Positions 19,963 to 63,086 of a stretch of DNA of 64,000 bases are shown piece by piece. Origin of the DNA: Octopus sinensis (Eukaryota); NCBI RefSeq assembly GCF_006345805.1, contig NC_043005.1, forward strand, positions 107,198,001-107,262,000, read 5' to 3'. The position numbers and the translations under genes were made by a program. The stretch's first letter is position 1. The number at the start of each line of letters is the position of its first letter. Under the pieces are notes generated by a model. That model searched no databases and had not been told where the DNA came from. It saw only the letters and a list, made by a program, of their open reading frames with translations.

Positions 19963-20140
19963 TCGATCACGGCAGAATTGAACGCAGAGCGTGAAGACTG
20001 ACGGAATGCTTCGAAGAATTTTGTCCGGCGTACTAACGATTCTTATTTCTCTATTGCCCACAAGGGGTTAAACATAGAAGGGACAAACAAGGACAGACAA
20101 AGGGATTAAGTCGATTACATCGACCCCAGTGCGTAACTGT
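19963..20140 (-). mobile_element. Nin-type SINE fragment (tail-to-head junction)
   Basis: Matches the 33014-33245 family; the tail is followed by a head segment. Confidence 0.75.
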
Positions 20141-20399
20141 GGTTGATCATGTTTACATAAAATCGGTATCGATTGTGTAAAAGTTTGATCAAAAGTGCTT
20201 CAGCCAAGACCCCAGCCGATATTATTTCTGCTCACCAGTTAAGCATTATCGGTGTTCTTGTTTTGTTTAGTTTTATATAAACAAGTGAAACTTATCTGTG
20301 AACAGTTCCCATCTGAAAAAGTTATCATAAATGCCTGACTTTCATTGACTGGTCTTCTCATAGCTTGAAGACTGGTGCATTCATTACAACCCTCGAGAA

Positions 20400-20620
20400 A
20401 GCAGGAGTGGAGTCGCTTTCCGAATGCATTTGGAGCTGTTTGCCTTTATCCGATGGTCGGAAAAGCACACTATGCAGCTAAAAGACAGTAAATTCGAATT
20501 ATGCACTTCGGTAAAGTGGCTTCACTTAAGCTACCATACACTCTTCCCTCGAGCGAAAACCTCATGGTATCAAACACCGCTTGGGATCTCGGAGTAACTG
20601 TCGACAACAACTTAAACTGC
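20400..20620 (+). mobile_element. CR1/Jockey-group LINE RT C-terminal fragment
   Basis: IRWSEKHTMQLKDSKFE/MHFGK..YTLPS..DLGVTVDNNLN resembles CR1-type 'W...n.M.fN..K...mhfG...kDLGV.vd..L'. Confidence 0.6.
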
Positions 20621-20644
20621 TATTTCCGAACAAACAACAAAGTG

Positions 20645-20717
20645 GGAATCTGGGAATCGAAACAGCGATCCTACGACCGCGTGTCCGCTGCCCTAACCAC
20701 TGGCCATTGCGCCTCCA
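20645..20717 (-). mobile_element. Isolated tRNA-derived SINE head (7312 family)
   Basis: Minus strand GGAGGCGCAATGGCCAGTGGTTAGGGCAGCGGAC..GTTTCGATTCCCAG parallels the 7312 head. Confidence 0.65.
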
Positions 20718-21602
20718 CATACACACACACACACACACAAACACACTTTAGCCTTGCAGTTTTAACTAGGAAGCCAGGTTATTCGTATCAGTGCTGTATA
20801 CATACATTCTCTCTATGCATAAAGTTGTTATTTGCCTACAGTTTCAAGTGTGTGTATGCGTATTTGCATTCATTATTGGATTTCTTTACAGGTGTATAGA
20901 TACACTGAGATATCTGAACGTTTTAACCATTAAATCAACATTTATGTTGATAAAAATATCGTATACTAATGCACGTAATAACTAATTTGACACTGCTTAT
21001 CACTCACTTCCATTACGTCATCAATATATGCACAATCTGAAGTGTCCACCTCAATATATCACATACAACTGTACGATACTGTTATTCCTTATACCCAGTC
21101 AGGGTACTATCCGATCCAATCATTATAGACCGATCCCGTCACGACCAACATGATCTCTTGAATCAAGCTGTACTATTTAAGTGATCAATGACACATCTAG
21201 AAACAGCGACCAAATCTGCTTCCAATTACGCTTTATAGTCTGAAATAAGAAATATATATTTTGGAAATTGTTGTACTTTCTTAGAAATGCAAATTCATAT
21301 TTTTGAATCAAGGATGTGCAGGATGAGAATGCTAGTACGAACTATAGAACAACAATAACAACAACAACAATAACAGCAGCAACAGCAATAGCAGCCGTTC
21401 ATGAATTTGAACCTGGAGATCTCCATTTCCAGCGACTTCGAGGGCCACCTCCCAGTGGTGTCAACGAAGAGCCATCGACTACAACAAGACGACCAAAGTT
21501 TTTTTTCCAAGGTCTGGGGTCTCCAGCCCCTAAGCCCTAGACCATCACCTAATCACCCTTACCCGAATTGTTGCTTAACAACAACAGCAGCAACAACAAC
21601 CA

Positions 21603-22175
21603 TTACGACGACGGAATGCTTCGAAGTATTTTGTCCGGCGTACTAACTATTCTTATTTCTTTATTGCCCACAATGGGCTAAACATAGAGGGGACAAACAA
21701 GGACAGACAAAGGGATTAAGTCGATTACATCGACCTCAGTGCGTAACTACAACTTAATTTATCGACCCCTAAAGGATGAAAAGCATTACTACACACAAGG
21801 GGCTAAACACAGAGGGGACAAACAAGGACAGACAAACGGATTAAGTCGATTACATCGACCCCAGTGCGTAACTGGAACTTAAGTTATCGACCCCGAAAGG
21901 ATGAATGGCAAAGTCGACCTCGGCGAATTTGAACCCAAAACGTAACAGCAGAGGAAATACCTATTTCTTTACTGCCCACAAGGGGCTAAACACAGAGAGG
22001 TCAAACGGATTAAATCGATTACATCGATCCCAGTGCGTAACTGGAACTTAATTTATCGACCCCAAAAGGATGAAAGGCAAAGTCGATCTCGGCGGAATTT
22101 GAACTCAGAACGTAACGGCAGACGAAATACGGCTACGCATTTCGCCCGGCGTGCTAACGTTTCTGCCACCTTAAG
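21603..22175 (-). mobile_element. Tandem array of Nin-domain tRNA-SINE units
   Basis: Three copies of the tail (GGGGCTAAACA..GGATTAAGTCGATTACATCGAC) and of the Nin-like core (minus: GCCTTTCATCCTTTCGGGGTCGATAAATTAAG); full head only at 22170. Confidence 0.85.
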
Positions 22176-23629
22176 GCAAGCCAATAATAATACCAACAAT
22201 ACTCCAAACATCCATTTACACTTAGCTAACTGCATACTATTTGTCAATCAATAATGTCACCGACACGTATCGCTGCTACATTCTTTTCTAAATATTCAAC
22301 TACCTTAAACAAACTCTGCATTATATGTCAGTCCCTGCCACAACCCTTACACAGAAACAACCATATGCTTACACTTCTATATCCCTGAGATAAATAAAAA
22401 ACAATGAATAAAATAAAACTCTCGGTTATTTCTTTTATTCGTTCTACTCTACCTCAACCAACGTTAGAGCATGTACCATAATTACTATGACATACCATAA
22501 ACAGACTTAACCGATTTTAAACAACCAAACACGCTGTAGGTTTTTCGGCGACATTTTCAATCTCAGGATATGTTTAACATGCTCTGAATTCGAAAAGTAG
22601 ACGCGAACGAGTGGCATTGTTAAAATAAACCATGCCTTTGATGGCTTTTGAAAGCTTAAGTTTGGCAAATAACTGTTAGCTTCCCCACACAGGAAGCAAA
22701 TTAATATCATCTTTGTTATATCCATTTCGAAAAACTGCGCGAGAATATGGTCCCTCGACCAAATATACGCATTTCTAGTCATTTGTAGCAATTAGTTTCT
22801 CTAACTGATATTTATCTTGCTATACATTAAAGGCCTTCAAAGAAATCGACCGTTATAATATCATTGATGTTAATCGAGGAAAGCGTATGTACGAGAGTGT
22901 CTGTGTGTGCATTGTGTGAGAGTTTGCGTGTGCGAGTGTTACTGATGGGTGACAATGTGTATATGCGTGCGTGTCAGATTTAAAGTCGGTGTCCGAATCA
23001 CTCTGAGCTTGTGTGTATGTAATTATATGCTTGTGTATGTGTTTGTAAATATGTTTATTCATGTGTAGTGTGACATTTCACATTGTTCTTGTAAATATGT
23101 AAGCATGGAAGTTAGCGTAACTCTATCTACGTACGCTTGCGCATAAAATGCATAAATATGTACATCTCTGCATCTATGTGTATAGGTGTGTATGTGTGTG
23201 TATATGTGAATGCTTGATGTGTTGGATGTGCTGTAATTTTTTTTTTTACTTCCAAGGTGCACTTGACCAAACCAAAAACCAATAAGTCACCATGACAACC
23301 AAACGGTCCTTCAGTTATTTTCAAAAGTAGATCATAAATTCACATATTACAAGGAAAACCATTGAGCTTCAGTAATGTGGACAGACTACAGTCGTAAAAT
23401 GGACGTTCACGTATGTTTAAAATCTTGGAGTGGGTTATTGGACGCTGAAGAAATTGAGAACTTGTAAACATTTGTTCTCCCGACATATATTTTCTTTTGC
23501 TACTTGTTTTTCTTTTTTTTTGTAGTGTTCAATTTCTTCATAAATCCTACAGGAATTTATTGTCTGACAATTTTTTCTCTAAAATATCGCTTTATTATGA
23601 AAAAGGATACATATAATTGTAATGTAATG

Positions 23630-24066
23630 TAAAGACAGACGAAATATCGCTAAGCATTTCGCCCGACCTGCTAATGTTTCTTATTTCTTTATTACCCCCA
23701 AGGGGCTAAACATGGAAGGAACAAACAAGGACAGACAAAGGGATTAAGTCGATTACATCAACCACAGTGCGTAATTGGTACTTAATTTATCGACCTCGAA
23801 AGGATGGACGGCAAAGTCGACCTTGGCGGAAAGTGAACTCAGAACGTAGCAGCAGACGAAATACCGCTAGGCATTTCGTTCGGCGTGCTAACGTTTCTGC
23901 TGGCTAGCCGCCTTAATGTGTATTATATATTCTTTTCTACTCTAGGCACAAGGCACGAAATCTTGGGGGAGGGGCCCAGTCGATTAGATCGACCCCAGTA
24001 CACAACTTATACTTATTTTATCGACCTCGAAAGGATGAAAGGCGAAGTCGACCTCGGTGGAACCTG
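23630..24066 (-). mobile_element. Nin-domain SINE cluster (full unit, extra head, variant-tail copy)
   Basis: Same head and core as 33014-33245; the 23930-24066 copy has the alternative tail (CTAGGCACAAGG..GGGGGAGGGG). Confidence 0.8.
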
Positions 24067-25927
24067 AACAAGAAGACTGACCAAGGCTTACACAACTCTC
24101 CGAACATGAAGTCTGACTTAGGCTTACACAACTGTCCGAACGATTGCAATCTTTTAAGATCGCATTTGCTCAATTTCAATTATTTAGTTATATTTTGCCC
24201 TAAACGGGAGCTCCGAATGTTTGTTACTGAACTTAGCATTGTACTCACTGTGTAAACTATACAATTTCATATGTCAGGTCTAGGCCGATTCTATACAAGT
24301 CACAAGGAAATCTTCAATGGGTAACCACATACTCTAATGCTACTAGCTCATTCTCTTTGAGACGTCAGCTCCTAAAGTGTTCCTTTTGGAACTTGTCCAG
24401 AGAAAGGGGTGAGTGGATAAACAATAGGGCAAATAATCAACAATAAATAAAACTCTTCATAGTTGATTGAGGTCCTTAACAGCTATGGTAGTAATATTAT
24501 GAAAAGGAGATGAATGCTATAAGGATCACTAAGTCCCTTTCTAATACTTGAATGGAAATTACAGCAATATTTAATCCGTTGCTGGGTCGGGGATACCAGC
24601 AAAACTCGTTTGCTAAAACTTGAAAACGTCGCCAAGAGTGTCACGTGCTGTATTAGTAGGAACGCGGACATTTGGTTTACTAATTACTTTGGTAATTGCT
24701 AAGATTTATATTACTATCGTGGATGGTTTTTCTGATCTCACTATTTAGTAAGTTATCATTGTTGTTAGTTATATTTAGCCTCGTGTTTTATTCAGGAATT
24801 CATTCGTGTTTATATAATGGAAAATGGGGAGACAAAATTTTTGTCAGATCAGGTGAAACGTATGCAAACGCCATTGTACGGATAAGTAACAAACGTGTCT
24901 TTTATTCTTTTGTTTGTTTCAGGCATTGAGCTGGGGCCATGCTCGGACAAAATCTTGCTTGTTAGAATCGATTTCAACATATTTTAAGATAATAGAACGT
25001 ATACAAAACAACAGTAGTTATTAAGTTTTGGGAAACAAACAAAAATACAAACAACTCGCGCAAAGCATGTGTATGTGTGTTTTTCTGTGTATATATACAT
25101 TTATGCATGTATGTATATATGTATGTATATCTACATACATATAAATGCGAAAACCAATTTCAGTGTCTCAGTGTGTCACACTTTGAATCCCCTCTCTCGC
25201 TATTTAATGACACTTTTACTGTTGACAATGTTTTATTAAAAGTAGTAGTGTTGATGGTAGTAGTGGGAGTAATAATAAGAGACAGAGAAAGTATGGGTAT
25301 GTGAGAGAAAGAGGGACTGAACACTAAATTCATTTTCTTAATACCACCACCATCGCCACCACATTGACCATGCACACACCATTCAGACTTCTGACGTCAC
25401 CACCATCAATACCTTTGACATCGCTGCATTTCCCTCCACGACCATGACCATTGTCTTTCACATCACTTAGTCTCACTCTCATCGCTGACCGCCTCGGCTA
25501 CCACCACCACTATCATCACCGCCACCTTCGCCTCTATCAACACTACAGCCCATATTATTACTATCATCCCATTACCATCATAAAAAAAGCTGAATGGTGT
25601 ATGTAGGGCAGATGTGGTGGCGATGGTGATGGTACTCTTGCTTATCCTGCAGCTTTGCAATAAGTTCCAAGTCGACAAAATTATATTGTTTCGATGAAAA
25701 TCGTTCATTGCTTGAAAAATATTGGCCAAGTTTAATAAAATTTTATATTTACTAAATGCACGAAGTGTCATTGTTGGGCCCAAGGCCCGATGAAGAGCCC
25801 TCCACAGGAGCTAGCCTAAGATCCACCCTATCAGGTCGCTTTTAAGCTAGTGTATATATATATGTGTGTGTATGTGTGTATATATATATTATATATATAT
25901 ATCTTACATACGCAAACGCATACACAG

Positions 25928-31840: not shown

Positions 31841-32423
31841 CGCGTGAGAGAGAAGTGCATGTCATCAAAGTGATACTGCTGTAAAATGTACGAAGCCCAA
31901 TGTACGCCTCATGAAGACCCGTCTGATAAGGGTAGTCATGATGTGTACCACTGCATGGTACCTGGGCGATATAAGTAGACCAGGCACATGCATCACAACC
32001 ATATATTGACGACATAGTGATCTCATATCAAGATCAACAGTGCATGACAGTGCATGTGGGCCCAGTTAGAATTTCTTTCTGGTTGAGTAGCGCACCCCAC
32101 TCAAAATTTCTCTGAATAAGAAATGTTTAAGGATGTTAAATGAATCACCCATGTTTCCAGAGGTGAATTATTCAAACGCCAACGAATTCCTCTCGACATA
32201 TGGCTATGATGTTCCTCCACTATATCTGCACCTGATGAGAGATGCACTTATCGTCAGCGACCAAGTGACATGCTCAACTGGTTAAAGTTGAAACAACTGA
32301 CAAGCAAACCTGTGGTTTTGAGCAGAATACTTGCTGCAGCCCATCTTTTATACCAAGAAAAATCATCTACGTAACACTTCCACTCAGTTAAGATCAGAAG
32401 CCACGAGAGCCACTGCCTGGTAC
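31841..32423. mobile_element. ~560-bp non-coding interspersed repeat, copy 1
   Basis: Colinear with 36363-36872, 40958-41506 and 61154-61710 (GAGAG..GTGCATG.CATCAAAGTGA ... GTTAAGATCAGAAGCCA.GAGAGCCACTGCCTGGTAC). Confidence 0.85.
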
Positions 32424-33013
32424 CGGGGCGATATACTGAATGGCATAAGTACAATATTTTATTGAATTAAAATTTGCAGAGAGCATACAGTAACCTAGTG
32501 GAAAGCGTGACTCTAAGAAATGAGAGTATATTTTTGAAAAAGTGTATTATCGGATCCAATTTTCATATTCATACTAAAATGAAAAGAAAAAAAAACTTTG
32601 GGAGAACGCAGATGACAGCCGACCGGTCGAGACAAGCATCCATGTATTGAGAGATAATTTGTTCACGTACAAAATTTACGAATTAGTTTGGCTTTTGTTA
32701 TGTCAAGAATTAAAAATGTTAACCTAGAGAGAAAACTAAAGTGGACAGATGTCATGAATGTAGATATTAGGAGCAATACATTGAAAAAATTGTGCGGCGT
32801 ATGGTAGGTCTATTTGAACTCATTTAAAATCTTTATTTGCATTTCAACTGTACAAACATGAATGGTTGTTAATTTAGATTAGCAACTCTATTTGGTTGAA
32901 TTTCATTACGTGTTTTATAAACTATGCTAAGGTTCATTTACAACCCATCTATCAATAATATTTTTCAAGAAACATTATTTAATCTAATTTTGAGTGAAAA
33001 GTCTACAATCACC

Positions 33014-33245
33014 TGTTTCTTTACTATCCACAAGGGGCTAAACACAGAGGGGACAAACAACGACAGACAAACGGATTAAGTCGATTAAATCGACCCCAGT
33101 GTGCAACTGGTACTTATTTAATCGACCCCGAAAGGATGAAAGGTAAAGTAGACATCGGCGGAATTTGAACACAGAACGCAACGGCAGACGAAATACCGCT
33201 AAGCATTTCGCCCGGCGTGCTAACGTTTCTGCCAGTTTGCCACCT
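33014..33245 (-). mobile_element. Full-length Nin-domain tRNA-derived SINE
   Basis: Minus strand head (TGGCAGAAACGTTAGCACGCCGGG..GTGTTCAAATTCC), core CCTTTCATCCTTTCGGGGTCGAT, tail ..CCCCTTGTGG..AAAGAAA; 19-bp TSD TGAAAAGTCTACA(A/G)TCACC at 32995-33013 and 33246-33264. Confidence 0.9.
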
Positions 33246-33736
33246 TGAAAAGTCTACAGTCACCATATTAGTTTCGCTCAAAATGTCAGTTTCATCATTA
33301 GCTTCATTTCATATGTAATGCAGCGTCCAAGATGTAAAAAATATAAGCTTGTCTCGTATTTTTACAGAATTGAACAGCTTTATTCACCTCTTTCCAGGCT
33401 TTTCGGTACAATGTCCATGTGAAACATTTCAAATGAAATACGTCCTTTTTGTTTTTTAATAATTTACATTCAGGTAGAACGAATTAGATTAATATTTTGA
33501 CAAATATAGTTCAATAGCGAATACTAACAGTAGTAGCGTTATTACTACTAAAAAGAAAGAACGACAACGAATTTGATTTGAACAATAAGACAACTAACTA
33601 TGTTTCAAAGAAAGCATAATGAATATCAATGAATTTCATTGACAGACCGATCACATAGAAGGCCGATTTTATTTTAGGGAAAAAAATCTAATACATGAAA
33701 TAATAATGTTCACTCACAAAGAATGAAAGGGATGAC

Positions 33737-36090: not shown

Positions 36091-36301
36091 GAGTGAGAGC
36101 AGTGCATGCCATCAAAGTGACACTGGGTTACAAATAAAGGAAGCCCAATACAACCATCATGACTACCCATCCAATAAGGGTACACCAATAAGGGTATCAC
36201 ATCCACCAATAAGGGTATCACATCCATGAATATTTTTTTATCATGCCTAATGCACCTTATTATTATCATTATTATTATTATTATTGCTGTTGTTATCATT
36301 A

Positions 36302-36358
<57 letters not shown>

Positions 36359-36872
36359 CATTGAGTGAGAGCAGTGCATGCCATCAAAGTGACACTGGGT
36401 TACAAATAAAGGAAGCCCAATACAACCATCATGACTACCCATCCAATAAGGGTACACCAATAAGGGTATCACATCCACGTTTGCGCAGATAGTGATCTTA
36501 CATCAATATAAACAGTGCATGACATTGCAAGTAGGGCCCAGTTATAAATTTCTTGAAGTTGCTTAGCCGATACCTATGGAAAGGTTTGTTTTACACGATG
36601 ATGAAGAAACACCCATGCTTCCAGACGTGAATAATCCAACGAATCCCTCTTAACATATGGCTAGGAATCTCCACCACTACTTCTGCACGTGATCAGAAAT
36701 GCACATAAGGAATATGCTCAAATGGTTAACGTCAAGCAACTGACGATTAAATCTGTAGTATTGGACAGAATATTTGCTGTAGCTCATCTCATATACCAAG
36801 ACAAAGATAACACTTCCAATCAGTTAAGAGGAAAAGCCATGAGAGTCAGTGCCTGGTACTGCATCAGGGAAT
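36091..36872. mobile_element. ~560-bp non-coding repeat, copy 2 (36363-36872), preceded by a duplicate of its left end (36091-36226)
   Basis: Colinear with the other copies; the two left ends look identical. Confidence 0.85.
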
Positions 36873-37448
36873 TTCTTATCATTATTATTATTTTGCTAAA
36901 GTTGTCCAACTTACCTTGTGCATTTTAACCCTTCAGCCAAACGACCTAGAAACTGCGGGACGATATTGAATGCAAGTTACTGACCTTCTATATATTGTCA
37001 CAGGTCACTGCTTTTCAGCTTCTTACTTTTGACTTTCGAACGTGTTGTTACGCCGCCATTTCTTTTCAGCTCATCGCCAAAATCTCACAGCAACTCAGCA
37101 CTTTTCGGCCTTAATTATTCATTTACTTTTAGAAAGGCACGCGCACACTAACGCAGATATTCATGTATGTATATGCAAGTGTATATACATACATACATGC
37201 ATACATACATACACACATAATTGCATACATATTAGATAGCTTCGCGCATTGCACTTATCAAACGCCTATCATAAAGCCATGAACTAAAAAGTATTGACTG
37301 TTCAATAACTCTTCTAACTTTCTTCCGATTGAATGTAATTCCCATATTTAGAGTTCTATGTCACGTGTTATGTCTGCATATGCATATGTATGTGTATGTG
37401 CATATTCATTTGCTCTCTCCCTCTCACACACACATTCACATGCTCACG

Positions 37449-40501: not shown

Positions 40502-40938
40502 AGGCAGCGACCTAACAAAATCATTTGCGCGCCGAAGAAATTAAAACACTTCACGGAATTTCGCCGTTCTTTATGTTCTGAGTTAAAACTCTTCGAAGTT
40601 CGACTTTGTCTTTCATCCTCTCGGGGTAGGTAAAATAATGGTTTTACAAATACTGGAGTCCATGAAAGGGAGTAGACATCCCCTTAAATTTCAGTCCTTG
40701 TGCCTATAGTAGGAAGTATTCTTATTATCAATAATTAGGCGACGAGCTGGCAGAATGGTTAGGAAGCCGGGAAAATTGCTTAGCTGCATTTTGTTCATCT
40801 TACGTAATGAGTTCAAATTCCACCGATGTGGACTTTGCCATTCATCATTTTGGGATCGATGAAATAATACCACTGGGATCGATAGAATCGACTTACCCCT
40901 CATCCCGAAGTTGCTGGCCTTGCTCCAAAATTTGAAAC
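40502..40938 (+). mobile_element. Two decayed Nin-domain SINE copies (40502-40722, 40737-40938)
   Basis: GGCGACGAGCTGGCAGAA head, GAGTTCAAATTCC B box, GACTTTGCCATTCATCATTTTGGGATCGAT core, GCTGGCCTTG..CCAAAATTTGAAAC tail. Confidence 0.75.
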
Positions 40939-40957
40939 TATTATTATTATTATTATT

Positions 40958-41506
40958 GAGCGAGAGAGCAGTGCATGCCATCAAAGTGACACTGGGGTAA
41001 AATATACGAAGCCCAGTTTACATATCATGACTACTCGTCTGAAAAGGGTACACCAGGCACATGCATCACAACCATATGTGCGCGACATGGTGAACTCTTA
41101 TCAAGATTTACAGCTTATGACCTTGCAGGTGGGGCCTAGTTAGAATTTTCTGTTGGTTAGGTAGCCCATCCCGCTCAAAAGGTCCCTGAATAAGGGTTGT
41201 TTATGTATATTGAACGAAACACCAATGTTTCCAAAGGTGAAATATCCAAATCCCAAAGAATTCTTCTCAGCACATGGCTATGATGCTCCCCTACTATTTC
41301 TGCATGTGATCAGAGATGTACGTGTCGTCAGCCACTAGTAGACATGCTCAATTGGCTAAGATCAAACAACTGACAAGCAAATCTGTGGTATTGAGCAGAA
41401 TATTTGCTGTAACCCATCTTATATACCAAGATAAATTAATGTAGACGATGACAATAACAACCAGTTAAGATCAGAAGCCATGAGAGCCACTGTCTGGTAC
41501 TGCATC
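40958..41506. mobile_element. ~560-bp non-coding repeat, copy 3
   Basis: Colinear with the other copies; between (TTA)n and (CAT)n(TTA)n. Confidence 0.9.
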
Positions 41507-41678: not shown

Positions 41679-44600
41679 TATGTTTGACTTTTGCTTTATG
41701 TCTGTATAAGTTGGCTCCAAGTCTCACCCAGAGACCTCAAGAGACAACAGGTTGGAAGTTCTGTGCCATATATTTGGGGGTTTTTTTGTGTTGTACTAGT
41801 GAATGTCTAATACATAAAAAAATAAATAAATAAATAAATTAATAAATAAAAAAAGTGTGTTTTAAACCTTGGGATTACGTAGAGAGTATTTTGCGTAGGA
41901 TATGAGCAGTTCCCATGAGAACTATCTTTTGAATTTCTGCAATTTGGGGGTTTCCTTGTATCTGAGTTAGGTAGCAATCAGTCCCTTTCGCTATCATTCC
42001 CAGGGCACCTATGACAACAGGTATTGTTTTTGTCTTCAGCTTCAGCTGATTTCTATTTCAAGATCTTTATATTTGCTCAGTTTTTGGTAGGTCTTGACAG
42101 ATACGTTTATATCGATTGGGACAGTCATATCAATGAGGAGGCATGTTCTTTGTCTGAAGTCTTTCAATATAATGTCTGGCCTATTTGCATCTATCTTCCT
42201 GTCAGTTTGAATGGTGAAGTTCCAGAGGAGTGAGATGTGGTCATTTTCAAGCACAGGAGGTGGATTGTGTTCCCACCAGTTTTTTTTTCATGGGGCAAAT
42301 CCAGGTTTTTGCAAATTACCCAGTGAATATATTGTGCAGCTCTATCATGCCTACTGAGGTACTCTGTAGGCGCTAGAAGACTGCATTTGGAGACAACATG
42401 GTCAATGGTTTCATTTTGTTGTCGGCATACACGACATGTTGGGTTACTGCCGTTCTTTAGTATGTTGGCCTGGTAGTTTCTTGTTGGTAGGCATTGATCT
42501 TGAGCTGCTATGATAAACCCCTCTGTTTCAGATTTTAAGCTAGAGGCCATTAGCCATTGATGGCTCAGGGCTTTGTCGATATCTGCATTATTCGCTCTCT
42601 TTGGGTATTTGCCATAGAGAGATTTTTCTTGCCATTTATTATTCAGAATATCTAAGGCCGCAGTTTTGGCACGGGTTTTCATGCGCCTAGCTTTTTCTGT
42701 ACTTGTGTCTTGTATATCTATCTCTAATTCCGAAATTGGTTGTATTCGGAAATCACTTAGATATTCCTTTGCCTGTTTTGTGACTGAGTATGATGCTTTC
42801 TTGTTTTCATGTTTTGAGATAAGTTTTAACATCCAGTCCTCAGAGTTTTTCAGGTAGGTGTCTAGGCCAATTGTAGCAATCTTCATTGTTATTGCCAGTT
42901 GCAAAAGACCACAGCCTCCCTCTTTTCTTGGCAGATAGAGTCGTTCTGTATCTGCCTTATGGTGGTGCATTCTATGCATTGTCAACAGTTTCCTTATTTT
43001 TCTGTCGAGCTGACATATTTCAGTAATTGACCAGTTAACAATATTGAAACTGTAAGTCACGACTGGTATGGCTAATGCATTGATCGCTTCGATCCTGTTT
43101 CTTGCATTCAGCTCTGTCTTGAGTATTGCTCTCACTCTTCGATAGCATTCTCTCCTGATCCTTTCCTTTATCTCTGAATGCCTTATTCCGTTCCCTTCAA
43201 TTACCCCTAGGTACTTGTAGCTCTCCGCTGGGTCTAGTTCTTTTATGACATTCTGTTGGTCAAGGTTAACGTTAGATGTTTCTGTCATTTTTCCTTTGAT
43301 AAAGGTAGCCTTTGCACATTTATCGAGGTCGAATTGCATTCTGATGTCGTCAATGAATTGTTTGACTATTGATAGTAAGCCCTTGCGTTGTTGATCATTT
43401 TTTGCAAAAAGCTTTAAATCATCCATGTAAACGAGATGATTTATATTTTTATCAAACATTTTATACCCGTACTGCGCGTCATTGAGCAGTTTTGAGAGAG
43501 GTATTAAGGATAAACAAAAGAGGAGTGGTGACAGTGAGTCACCCTGGAAAATGCCACACGAAATGTTTACATCACCAGCATTTAGGGATTCATTGTCACT
43601 GTTCACAGTTAGTGTGGTTCTCCATGATCTCATACTTACAGTCAAGAAGTTTCGCAGAGTAGGTGCTATCTTATACATTTCCAGGCATTTCCTAATCCAG
43701 CTATGTGGTAGGCTATCAAAAGCCTTTTTATAGTCTATCCAGGCTATTGATAAGTTTTTGTGTCGTTTGTGACAATCTTCTAAGATCATCTTATTGATGA
43801 GTAGCTGGTCTTTACAGCCGTAGGATCCACGTTTACATCCTTTCTGTTCATTAGGGAATATGCTGCTGTCTGTTAAAAAACTATAGGTATATTCCGTCAG
43901 GACAGATGTTAGTGTTTTGTACATAGTTGTTAAGCAGGTTATGGGTCTATAGTTTTTTGGTTCATTTGTTTCTTCACTTTTTGGAAGCAGGAATGTTAAC
44001 CCATTAACTAGCCAAGGAGGCATCCTACTAGGGTGTTGCAAAACATCATTGTACAGTTCTGTTAGCACTTCATGGCTCTCTGGGAAGGCATTCAGCCAGA
44101 AGTTAGGAATTTTATCCTTTCCTGGAGACTTCCATTTGCTTGACCACCTGAGAGCAGATCTTATATCTTCTACCTTGACACCCTCCCACTTTTGCTCTTC
44201 TAAGGGGTCCAGTTCTGTAGATATTCTGTCAATCCAGGGGGCCTTTTCGTTGTGTGTTTTTCTTCTGCCCAGATTTTATTCCAAAATACCTGCACTTCTT
44301 TTAATGGTACAGACCTTGCAGTAAACGCTGTTTTTCCTATCTTCCTGTAAAAATTCTTGGTGTTATTTTTGAACATGTTGTTGTCCTTGAAAAATCTAAC
44401 ACGCTTTTCATACCTCGCTATGCGGGAAGCTTTTGCAGATACCTTTTGTTTCATGGTTTCTATAGTGGCATCAATATCAAGTATAGTTTTTGTAGGTTTG
44501 GTAGTTTTGTGAGCCTTAATGTTTTTAAAATATTCAATGTCAGATCTAAATATTTTAATTTGTTGTTGCAGACGCTCTTGCCAAGAAGGCTTTTTGTGGG

Positions 44601-45165
44601 AATGTTGCCGTTTTCTAATCTTTACACCACATAGGATTGTTGAGATTTTCGCGGATGCATATTATAGGTGGTTGAGGTTTGTGATATCAACATCATTAGC
44701 TGAAATTATATTCTTAAGTGCAAGGCGGATTTTACCAATAATTTTCATGTTTTGGTTAGAGTTGCGGATTTTAGGAAGTGTATCACGTTCATCCATGCTG
44801 GTTTCTTTAATTTTCAGCCATTCAATCATGATTTGATTTTTTAGCTCATGTAGTTCTGTTGGGTCAATATTTGTGTGACTTTCTTTATCTATTTGATGCT
44901 CATCTGTCTTAGTGTTTATGATTGGTTCAGGGAGTATTTCACTTTGCCTATCACTTATACTAACTCTTTCAATCCTCACTTCGTTTTTATTAGCCCTGGG
45001 CTGGTCTATAATTATTTCCTCTGTATTATCTTCTCTAGCTGCAGCTTCGTTCATTTTATCCGATATTGCTTGTCTAACTTGATCAATCTCTACTTCAGTC
45101 AGTAATTTTTTTTTTATAATGTTTCTTCTGGCGTTGGCAAGTTTGTTACTATCTATGTAGGGTCT
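41678..45165 (-). mobile_element. R4/Dong-clade non-LTR retrotransposon, near full length, slightly 5'-truncated
   Basis: Single disrupted ORF: N-terminal KLANARRNIIKKKLLTEVEIDQVR, RT, CCHC, RLE, C-terminus QKIVLMGTAHILRKILST* (stop 41875-77), ~200-bp 3' UTR, then (TAA)n on the sense strand as established for Dong. Confidence 0.92.
42191..44068 (-). pseudogene. Reverse transcriptase + CCHC portion (625 aa) of the Dong ORF; frameshifted before the RLE (42042..42254)
   Basis: NYRPITCL, EQKG, IDYKKAFDSLPH, GIFQGDSLSPLLF, YMDDLKL, YKYLG, EGGCGL, AAQDQ, CRVC-x8-H-x4-C, RHD; RLE motifs RPDII, LIDMTVP, KYKDL in the next frame. Confidence 0.92.
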
Positions 45166-60080: not shown

Positions 60081-60759
<679 letters not shown>

Positions 60760-60760
<1 letters not shown>

Positions 60761-61111
60761 TGTTTGGCTTGTGCTTTGTATTTCTACAAGCTGGCTCCAA
60801 GTCTTACCCAGAGACCTCAAGTGACAACAAGTTTGAAGTTCAAGCTGGTGTTATGCCTAGGGTATTGTTATATATTTGGTCTTGCACATAGTATTGTTCT
60901 AGAAAATGTTTAGGAAAACATAATTATAAGTTTGTTTTAAAATTTGAGATGACATAGACATCATTTATGTAGGATATGGGCAGTTCCCATGAGTGCTAGC
61001 TTTTGAATTTCTGCCATTGTGGGGTTTTCTGGTATCTGAGCTAGGTAAGAATCAGGCCCTTTTGCTATCATTCTTAGGACACCTATGACAACAGGTATTG
61101 TTTTAGTCTTG
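60760..61111 (-). mobile_element. 5'-truncated 3' fragment of the 41678 Dong family
   Basis: GGCTCCAAGTCT.ACCCAGAGACCTCAAG 3' UTR and KTIPVVIGVLRMIAKG..EIQKLALMGTAHIL match 41690-42035. Confidence 0.85.
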
Positions 61112-61153
61112 ATTATCATCATCATCATCATCATCATTATTATTATTATTATT

Positions 61154-61707
61154 GAGTGAGAGAGCAGTTCATGCCATCAAATTGATACTGGGGTAAAATA
61201 TACGAAGCCCAATATACCCATCATGACTATCCGTCTGATAAGGGCACACCAGGCACATGCATCACAACCATATGTGCGCGGCATGGTGATCACATATCAA
61301 GATAAACTGCACATGACCTTGCAAGTGGGGCCCAGTTAGAATTTTCTCCAGGTTGAGTAGCCCATCCCGCTCAAACGGTCCCTGAATAAGGTTGTTTAAG
61401 GATGTTGAAAAACCCACCCATGTCTCCAGAGGTGAATTATTCAAACCCTAAAGAATCCCTCTCAACACATCGCTATGATGCTCCCCCACTACTTCTGCTC
61501 GTGATCAGAGATGCCCATATCGTCAGCCACTAAGGGACATGCTCAATTGGTTAAGGTCAAACAACTGACAAGCAAATCTGTGGTATTGAGCAGAATATTT
61601 GCTGTAGCCCATCTTTTCATACCAAGACAGAACAATGTACATGATAACACTTCCAATCAGTTAAGATCAGAAGCCATGAGAGCCTCTGCCTGGTACTGCA
61701 TCAGGGC

Positions 61708-61710
<3 letters not shown>
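61154..61710. mobile_element. ~560-bp non-coding repeat, copy 4 (most complete)
   Basis: Colinear with the other copies; (TTA)n directly on both sides. Confidence 0.9.
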
Positions 61711-61777
<67 letters not shown>

Positions 61778-63086
61778 ATTATTATTATCATCATCATCAT
61801 CGTTTTAGACATGTGAAGTTTCGTAGGCTTCTTACTAAAACCTAGCTCATCTAGTTCAGTCAACTGGGACCGACGACCTAGGATTTTGTAAGCCTACAAA
61901 ACTTAAAGTCGCGGAGGGCCGGCTGAGACTACTTTAAATGATAATATATGCAACCCCTACAAAATGCGTCGAATGCCTCTTTCTTTCATGTTCCACTCAT
62001 CGGTATATGTGTGTGTGTGTGCGCGCGCGTGTTTGTGAGTATGTATATGTGTGCGTATACTTGAGCATATGTGTGAATGTGTTATTGATTATCCTTGTGC
62101 CAAAACTGATCAAGCATTCTCTCAGAATTGCTGGCCTTGTCCCAAAATGATATGTCAACAGGAACACGAAGCATAGTTTAACCATGTAAATATGCCTATA
62201 GTCAATAGATGTGCTTCCAAGATTTTAAGTATAAATTGTATCCTATATAATACGTTAGACTGAAACGTTCTAACTTTGGATTATTATATGTTACAAATAT
62301 AAGAACAGATCCACGATTATCTTAATCAATACCGATCCCACAACCTTTTTGCCATACATTTTCATGCAACTCAGTGAGAACAAAGATTTTCAATGTCATA
62401 TTGGCTGACACATTACTTATGCCCTACTCTTTGTGCTCTAACACATTTTTCTGATGATAGAAAATATACATAATACTGCTATGTCAGCAAATAGATTTGA
62501 TATATGTTACACATTTTATATAACTGAAGGAAGAGAAGAAAAAATTTTAATGTTCAAAATTGGAAAATAACGCCTTGAATCACAGAAAAGAACGAATGTA
62601 ATTTTATCTTATTCTAAGACAGCATTTAGTAATAGCTTGAGACAATAAAAAATAAAAAACATCAGAAGAATAATCTTGCTTGGTGAGCAACATAAGTACG
62701 ACACGGTTCCATCAGCGTTGTGTACTCAGTCAATCCAGCCCACCACACCTCCTTTCACTTAATAAGAAATAAGTAAACCTCACGAAGTAACAAAACCAAC
62801 AAAAATAACTAAACAACAATATTACCTGCTTGGGCCATACGATAAACGCAACCTCAATACGCAGGTCAGCCATGTATTAAATCAGTTAAAAGCTTTAGCC
62901 AATTACCAAGTTTACATAAAACGTTGCTTTCAACTCTCATACTCTCCCGCTCCATCTCTTTATACACCAATAGCTATGTTTTTGTCAGCCACCCCTACCT
63001 GCACACACATGTATTGATAGAGAGATAGATATATAAACTGAGAGAAACATAGGGAGAGAGAGAAAAAGAGAAAAATAAAGAGATAC

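Follow-up and report, generated by a model that had tools for sequence, protein, structure and literature searches.

Enzymes of the R2 family are thought to recognise the 3' UTR of their own RNA, and the passengers known for them contain parts of the host LINE. EhLINE1, the partner of EhSINE1 in Entamoeba histolytica, belongs to the R4 clade and has a restriction-like endonuclease. Here, such systems are compared with a short, ORF-less element found at (TAA)n tracts in the genome of Octopus sinensis.

The R2 SIDEs and R2/R1 hybrid SIDEs of Drosophila are short, non-coding and site-specific passengers of an R2-family enzyme, as this element probably is, with variation at the 5' junction and template jumps. 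In the portions of PMC3414825 used here, they are rare and consist of a 5' ribozyme and a LINE 3' UTR, whereas neither part was detected in the octopus element, which is present in tens of thousands of copies. EhSINE1, as outlined in PMC2996970, is similar in being 500–600 bp long, ORF-less and non-autonomous, with no small-RNA precursor identified and an unclear promoter, but it shares ~70 bp of its 3' end with EhLINE1 and has ordinary TSDs at T-rich sites; in the octopus element no common tail was detected and the target is (TAA)n. The LP-SINEs of gastropods and bivalves are likewise molluscan and lack a small-RNA head, Pol II transcription having been proposed for them, and they set a precedent among molluscs for a head of non-Pol III type; their heads are traceable to LINE 5' UTRs and their TSDs are variable (PMC4758252, in its sections on these families). 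For the head of the octopus element no LINE origin was found among the five Dong families compared.

Dong, of the R4 clade, is a described TAA-targeting group (PMC3812793, in the part dealing with it) known from Bombyx, Anopheles and Biomphalaria. Octopus Dong is mentioned in passages of PMC8967140 and PMC9115989, and the octopus annotation as excerpted from PMC13282606 holds 51 Dong-R4 families, five of them recently active. Dong and the octopus "Dong-R4" resemble the element in their (TAA)n target, orientation, junction phase, 5' truncation and head duplication (relevant parts of PMC3812793, PMC13282606 and PMC9115989), and differ in being autonomous, 4–5 kb long and provided with an ORF; silkworm Dong also self-cleaves at its 5' junction by an HDV-like ribozyme (PMC3774820, as summarised there), and none was detected in the element. 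The sources of bipartite elements are given, in the pertinent text of PMC5786205, as RTE, Ingi, Vingi and R2 only. By our analysis the octopus element would work like an R2 SIDE or EhSINE1, yet it does not fit the definitions of SIDEs, bipartite LINE derivatives or classical SINEs.

Results

The element was noticed in a 64-kb stretch of DNA (the window), in which the following features, all on the minus strand, were delimited.

61154..61710, minus strand: focal element, 557 bp, a member of a young subfamily; probable RNA start at 61709 ± 1, which is element nt 1–3
61607..61710, minus strand: 5' domain (nt ~1–104), a predicted closed hairpin domain, with a fold z of −2.3 for the sense and +0.6 for the antisense strand
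61438..61605, minus strand: segment nt ~106–273, found too within a separate ~500-bp MITE bearing TIRs
61207..61254, minus strand: 3' hairpin with a GGRUA pentaloop, suggestively like the hairpin common to Dong 3' UTRs
61113..61153, minus strand: 3' flank, (AAT)5 followed by (GAT)n, target or tail
61711..61788, minus strand: 5' flank, (TAA)n target tract of ~26 units
60750..61110, minus strand: old Dong-like 3' fragment, 5'-truncated, with ORF end and 3' UTR, co-oriented with the focal element
40958..41506, minus strand: second copy, 86% identity, inserted into a Dong-A tail
41680..45165, minus strand: a Dong-A copy, 5'-truncated and frameshifted, with RT domain, CCHC motif and endonuclease-like end
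36363..36873, minus strand: third copy, 75% identity
36095..36187, minus strand: fifth piece, a 5' fragment (nt 7–98) inside a local tandem duplication
31841..32423, minus strand: fourth copy, 78% identity, with a 43-nt insertion similar to its own 5' end

A sequence-only reading of the window had reported four long copies with common ends, in one orientation relative to TTA and close to Dong fragments. The four copies (31841, 36363, 40958 and 61154) are present, the first two matching the focal element over 31844–32423 and 36367–36873, besides the fragment at 36095–36187; all are on the minus strand adjoining TTA tracts, their start and end sequences match those given in that reading, and Dong-like pieces lie ~45–320 bp from each of the four. 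That they share both ends held in part: at 40958 the initial 8 nt are missing and the copy is preceded by (GAT)n; in the copy at 31841 the first ~14 nt are divergent, TAA is absent from the 5' side and the 43-nt insertion is present. The element ends are not inverted repeats, and the lack of TIRs, of a conserved ORF and of tRNA boxes was borne out, the longest ATG-ORF having 35 aa in the sense and 50 aa in the antisense direction; ARAGORN found a tRNA in none of the four loci, the A box is absent and the sense strand has no B box. Another abundant short repeat family occupies positions 19991–24074, 33011–33246 and 40597–40895 of the window, partly as 125-bp tandem units and often abutting AAT tracts.

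Genome-wide, the 28-mer at the 3' end of the element has 11,489 exact matches in 2.72 Gb (reversed control, 0) and that at the 5' end has 5,344. The motif AATAAT directly follows 9,867 of the 11,489 exact 3' ends, and the orientation is fixed. Sixty evenly spaced 10-kb stretches (600 kb, an unbiased sample) gave 13 hits, comprising 11 copies and one MITE, from which ~50,000 copies were extrapolated (Poisson range ~25,000–90,000). Near-identical sequence also occurs in sequencing runs under four organism labels. In a set of mixed selection, comprising 101 distinct copies whose 3' end is intact, an AAT-type repeat follows 98, with (AAT)3 within 30 nt in 94 and (TTA)3 in 3. Young copies differ by 0.4–3% from the majority sequence, and diagnostic sites divide the element into nested, partly mosaic subfamilies, a pattern that fits several source copies.

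The integrity of the copies is asymmetric. In a set of 30 chosen by the 3' motif (the first matches on contig 1), 14 get to the 5' end, two of these with internal deletions, and 16 are 5'-truncated, contrary to the earlier impression that copies are nearly always full length. The break point falls at nt 54–112 in nine of the 16, most 5' truncations stopping within the 5' domain (61607..61710) or at its base, and upstream TAA repeats, either direct or beyond a short self-duplication, were found in 14 of them. When copies were chosen by the 5' motif, 28 of 30 get to the 3' end. At none of the 60 end-anchored loci (30 by each motif, with some overlap) does the sequence run on into an ORF.

The element is thus a self-contained unit whose polarity is that of target-primed reverse transcription, and it combines the marks of a non-autonomous product of that process: a fixed 3' end with a simple-repeat tail, variable 5' truncation and no coding capacity. 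Any target-site duplication would be masked by the surrounding microsatellite. The polar truncation and the lack of run-on into an ORF argue against a solo LTR, a MITE or the UTR of some longer element. Random insertion sites, a solo LTR and the UTR of a longer element had been named beforehand as outcomes that would refute the Dong-dependent retroelement first proposed; each was looked for, and none was encountered. A DNA-level repeat, whether of the solo-LTR, MITE or satellite-like type, is scarcely credible. Some copies are in tandem and nt 106–273 occur within a MITE, as such a repeat might lead one to expect; against this, TIRs and LTR-type ends are absent, the tail is fixed and folding is strand-specific, and the polar truncation largely refutes the idea. 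Solo LTR and MITE were rejected because the element lacks LTR-type ends and terminal inverted repeats and its integrity is asymmetric.

The MITE that carries nt ~106–273 is ~500 bp long, has terminal inverted repeats (L163–L182; L046:4815–5310) and is flanked by apparent 3-bp TAA/TTA duplications; we take it to be Harbinger-like. Its segment differs from the element majority at six sites, MITE copies being ~7% from their own majority. As the segment pairs with element sequence that is absent from the MITE, capture from the element is the likelier direction.

As candidate partners, long copies of five TAA-flanked LINE families, here named A–E, were fetched. A long Dong-A copy has a 1,313-codon open frame with RT and CCHC domains, and the best solved relatives of its protein are R2 proteins (E 5.6e-28); open frames in families A and D range from 1,200 to 1,350 codons. 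The traits of Dong/R4 were found, namely a single ORF with RT, CCHC and a restriction-like endonuclease (a motif read by eye) and a TAA target, and the label Dong/R4 used here for these putative members follows ORF layout and target. Families A, D and E are of recent age (97–99% identity between copies), comparable to young copies of the element. With these open frames and young copies, an enzyme source is present. All five families end in the phase X|AATAAT, which is identical to that of the element.

Of 30 element copies, 15 have a Dong piece no more than 400 bp away, but so do 30 of the 77 TAA tracts sampled without bias. Proximity by itself therefore tells little; the closeness is mostly due to the common target. 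Where Dong pieces are neighbours, they are co-oriented with the element in 15 of 15 cases. Element and Dong thus agree in target, phase and orientation, and since these features and the age match the Dong-like families, Dong-type target-primed reverse transcription is likely. Mobilisation by another microsatellite-targeting enzyme, such as one of the Penelope type, with which the element would have only its tracts in common with Dong, appears very unlikely. It could account for a closeness to Dong so little above the TAA-tract background and for the other repeats that abut AAT tracts too. The 3' phase, however, is that of Dong, and the element has neither a hammerhead, the mark of retrozymes and Penelope-mobilised elements, nor a terminal repeat. 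Furthermore, partial tandems of Penelope duplicate the tail, whereas the element duplicates its head, as does Dong-E.

Four candidate element–Dong fusions were seen. Three of them join the two directly with no TAA between (L026:632–1430; L023:1–680; L139), through either a template switch or a deletion. The fourth, L198, was rejected as a Dong-to-element template jump, as the rest of that old copy lies downstream with the same private changes at nt 98–153. When the whole genome was scanned for element heads lying no more than 450 nt from a Dong-E head, the single match was L243, which was rejected as a chimera: it is a 3'-broken copy followed by TAA and Dong-E. No clear-cut chimera was thus obtained, and the evidence for jumps between the two kinds of template is weak. 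L244:175–3259 is an old copy of the element interrupted by a Dong-E-like insertion; nt 98–153 occur on both sides of the insertion, possibly a ~55-bp target duplication at a non-TAA site. In contrast to silkworm Dong, the 5' UTRs of Dong A, E and D (L036, L183, L194) gave no fit to the HDV-like descriptor. Each has a splice-donor-like GTAAGT ~100–260 nt from its start, a hint of Pol II transcripts.

On the sense strand the element folds with a z of −4.88, and none of 100 shuffles was as good. The sense strand folds better than the antisense in every domain tested, clearly so in the 3' domain (−4.3 vs −1.2) and by a small gap at nt 108–220 (−2.0 vs −1.7). Variants shared among copies disrupt 15 of the 64 predicted pairs, against 23.1 ± 3.1 expected, for a structure drawn from the majority sequence and copies that are related. 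Covariation, which had been suggested as a check of the fold, is nearly absent: it is confined to one partial double change (G-C 78, A-U 10, A-C 14, G-U 5), and the covariance term of the alignment is −0.85.

About 75 nt from its 3' end the element has a hairpin that looks like one common to Dong 3' UTRs. In the divergent families A–D this hairpin keeps its bulge and pentaloop while its inner pairs covary, and leave-one-family-out scores were positive for 14 of 15 members. A covariance model of the Dong hairpin, built without the element, had the expected hairpin as its best hit at 7 bits (E 0.27, not significant), and 336 of 2000 shuffles equalled the score of the element in the profile test. 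The likeness, not being significant, is a suggestive lead.

The sequence-only reading had seen no similarity between the element and Dong 3' UTRs, and none was found. Apart from separate inserted copies, blast gave no match to any sequence of families A–E, their 5' and 3' ends included, it being uncertain for B and C whether the genuine 5' end was reached; local alignment to 58 of 66 Dong 3' UTR pieces (8 dropped for length) was at chance level, the best score being equalled by 10 of 300 shuffles. Among the five sampled families, then, neither end is homologous to Dong as it would be in a SIDE or bipartite element. We consider it unlikely, though the least so of the alternatives to the present account, that the element is a SIDE-like bipartite or LINE-promoter derivative of an unsampled or extinct Dong/R4 family, which would give it the same mechanism and an ordinary origin. 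Long copies of five families were compared, set against the 51 Dong-R4 families of the octopus library (PMC13282606, in the part cited above), the 5' ends of Dong B and C were not firmly reached, and the 3' hairpin agrees with Dong-C at 14–15 of 22 positions in register, with one swapped pair. Such a derivative is opposed by the blast result and the chance-level alignments to the sampled UTRs, and by the 60 end-anchored loci (some overlapping), none of which continues into an ORF.

The lead that the element might be a SIDE with a 5' ribozyme was also not sustained. No match to the HDV-like descriptor was found in silico at its 5' end (the descriptor recovered 20 of 20 synthetic controls), and a relaxed search gave eight overlapping internal matches and none at the 5' end. 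A hammerhead was absent in all strand orders searched, and Rfam returned only chance-level or repeat-driven hits, with no ribozyme among them. Nor did the box scan, ARAGORN and Rfam reveal a small-RNA-derived head with Pol III boxes, as in a classical SINE; the sense strand contains internal T4 runs, and no promoter motif was found. The metagenome contigs and phages searched contained no distant relatives. An A-to-G strand excess, the trace of RNA editing, was absent (26 vs 34 events, p 1.0). A literature search, conducted without Repbase, Dfam and octopus consensus libraries, turned up no published account of a non-autonomous partner of Dong. Because one octopus library holds 1,279 unclassified SINE families (the supplement of PMC13282606, in part), the element is probably already catalogued, without a mechanism.

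The heads of the copies bear on the start of the template RNA. A duplicate of the element's own head, instead of TAA, precedes 14 of 64 full copies; these duplicates span 17 to 236 nt and are stacked in some copies. By script, 11 of 28 heads of full-length Dong-E copies likewise have a tandem duplication of the first 15–330 nt (L213–L242; L024:2195–3100). Head duplications would be the expected trace of template jumping or re-priming at the 5' end of a template, and template jumps of R2 in vivo have been described (PMC3414825, in the portion on R2). At the duplication junctions the downstream copy begins at nt 1–3 with no TAA between, and the template RNA therefore likely starts at the A of AUGCCC.

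Expression was examined in two raw, unstranded RNA runs of a related species. One, with 12.9 million reads, has 9,066 on the element, and the other, with 12.0 million, has 7,855. The reads are equal on both strands and have no sharp ends, and few match young copies at ≥99% (70 of the 9,066), all of which fits passive inclusion in other transcripts. The discrete ~560-nt RNA that had been proposed was not seen in these runs, whose reads are compatible with its presence as well as its absence. In the copy at L158, a 139-nt head duplication (joint 1636 to 1498) is crossed by 672 and 469 junction reads in the two runs and is also present in DNA contigs.

A sharp RNA start, with upstream TAA absent at the duplication junctions, could also arise if the same trans-mobilisation acted on an RNA whose 5' end is released from a read-through transcript by self-cleavage, through a ribozyme of undescribed class located in nt 1–104. 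We regard this as rather unlikely. In its favour are the fold of the 5' domain, restricted to the sense strand, and the self-cleavage of silkworm Dong at its 5' junction (PMC3774820, as above); it is countered by the absence of the HDV-like descriptor, hammerhead (in any strand order) and Rfam ribozymes, by local Dong 5' ends that likewise lack the HDV descriptor, and by the 672 and 469 reads that run uncut over an internal head junction, in a copy that may be antisense or mutated.

Discussion

Taken together, the preferred reading is that a folded element RNA is probably copied into (TAA)n in trans by a Dong/R4-type reverse transcriptase-endonuclease. The original proposal of a Dong-dependent, site-specific, structured and non-autonomous element gains indirect support from the target, phase, orientation, 5' truncation, head duplications and strand-specific fold.

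Under this model, several source copies would give an RNA starting at the A of AUGCCC. How it starts is the least certain step. An internal Pol II-type start is the most likely of the routes considered, with a little under an even chance; an outside promoter at a few master loci is appreciably less likely, a ribozyme of an undescribed type slightly less likely again, and a non-canonical Pol III start improbable. The RNA is predicted to fold into three domains, and the Dong protein would bind it, probably via the 3' hairpin and the AAU tail. The bound protein would then nick (TAA)n and prime at the 3' end of the element. Synthesis may often stop at nt 48–112, or may get to the 5' end and restart on a like template to give head duplications; products of both kinds are seen. 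A more radical version, in which a free-standing RNA parasite with no LINE- or small-RNA-derived part hijacks a sequence-specific Dong enzyme by resembling the hairpin of Dong 3' UTRs in shape, and cleaves its 5' end with an undescribed ribozyme in nt 1–104, seems distinctly unlikely.

If trans-mobilisation by Dong is true, a passenger of ~50,000 copies without detectable common sequence would mean that the Dong enzyme reads shape or the AAU tail only. The element would also be a short natural template for testing recognition by Dong, which bears on RNA-templated gene insertion by enzymes of this kind. For octopus genomes, it names one large component among the unclassified short repeats and illustrates how TAA tracts grow into nested clusters.
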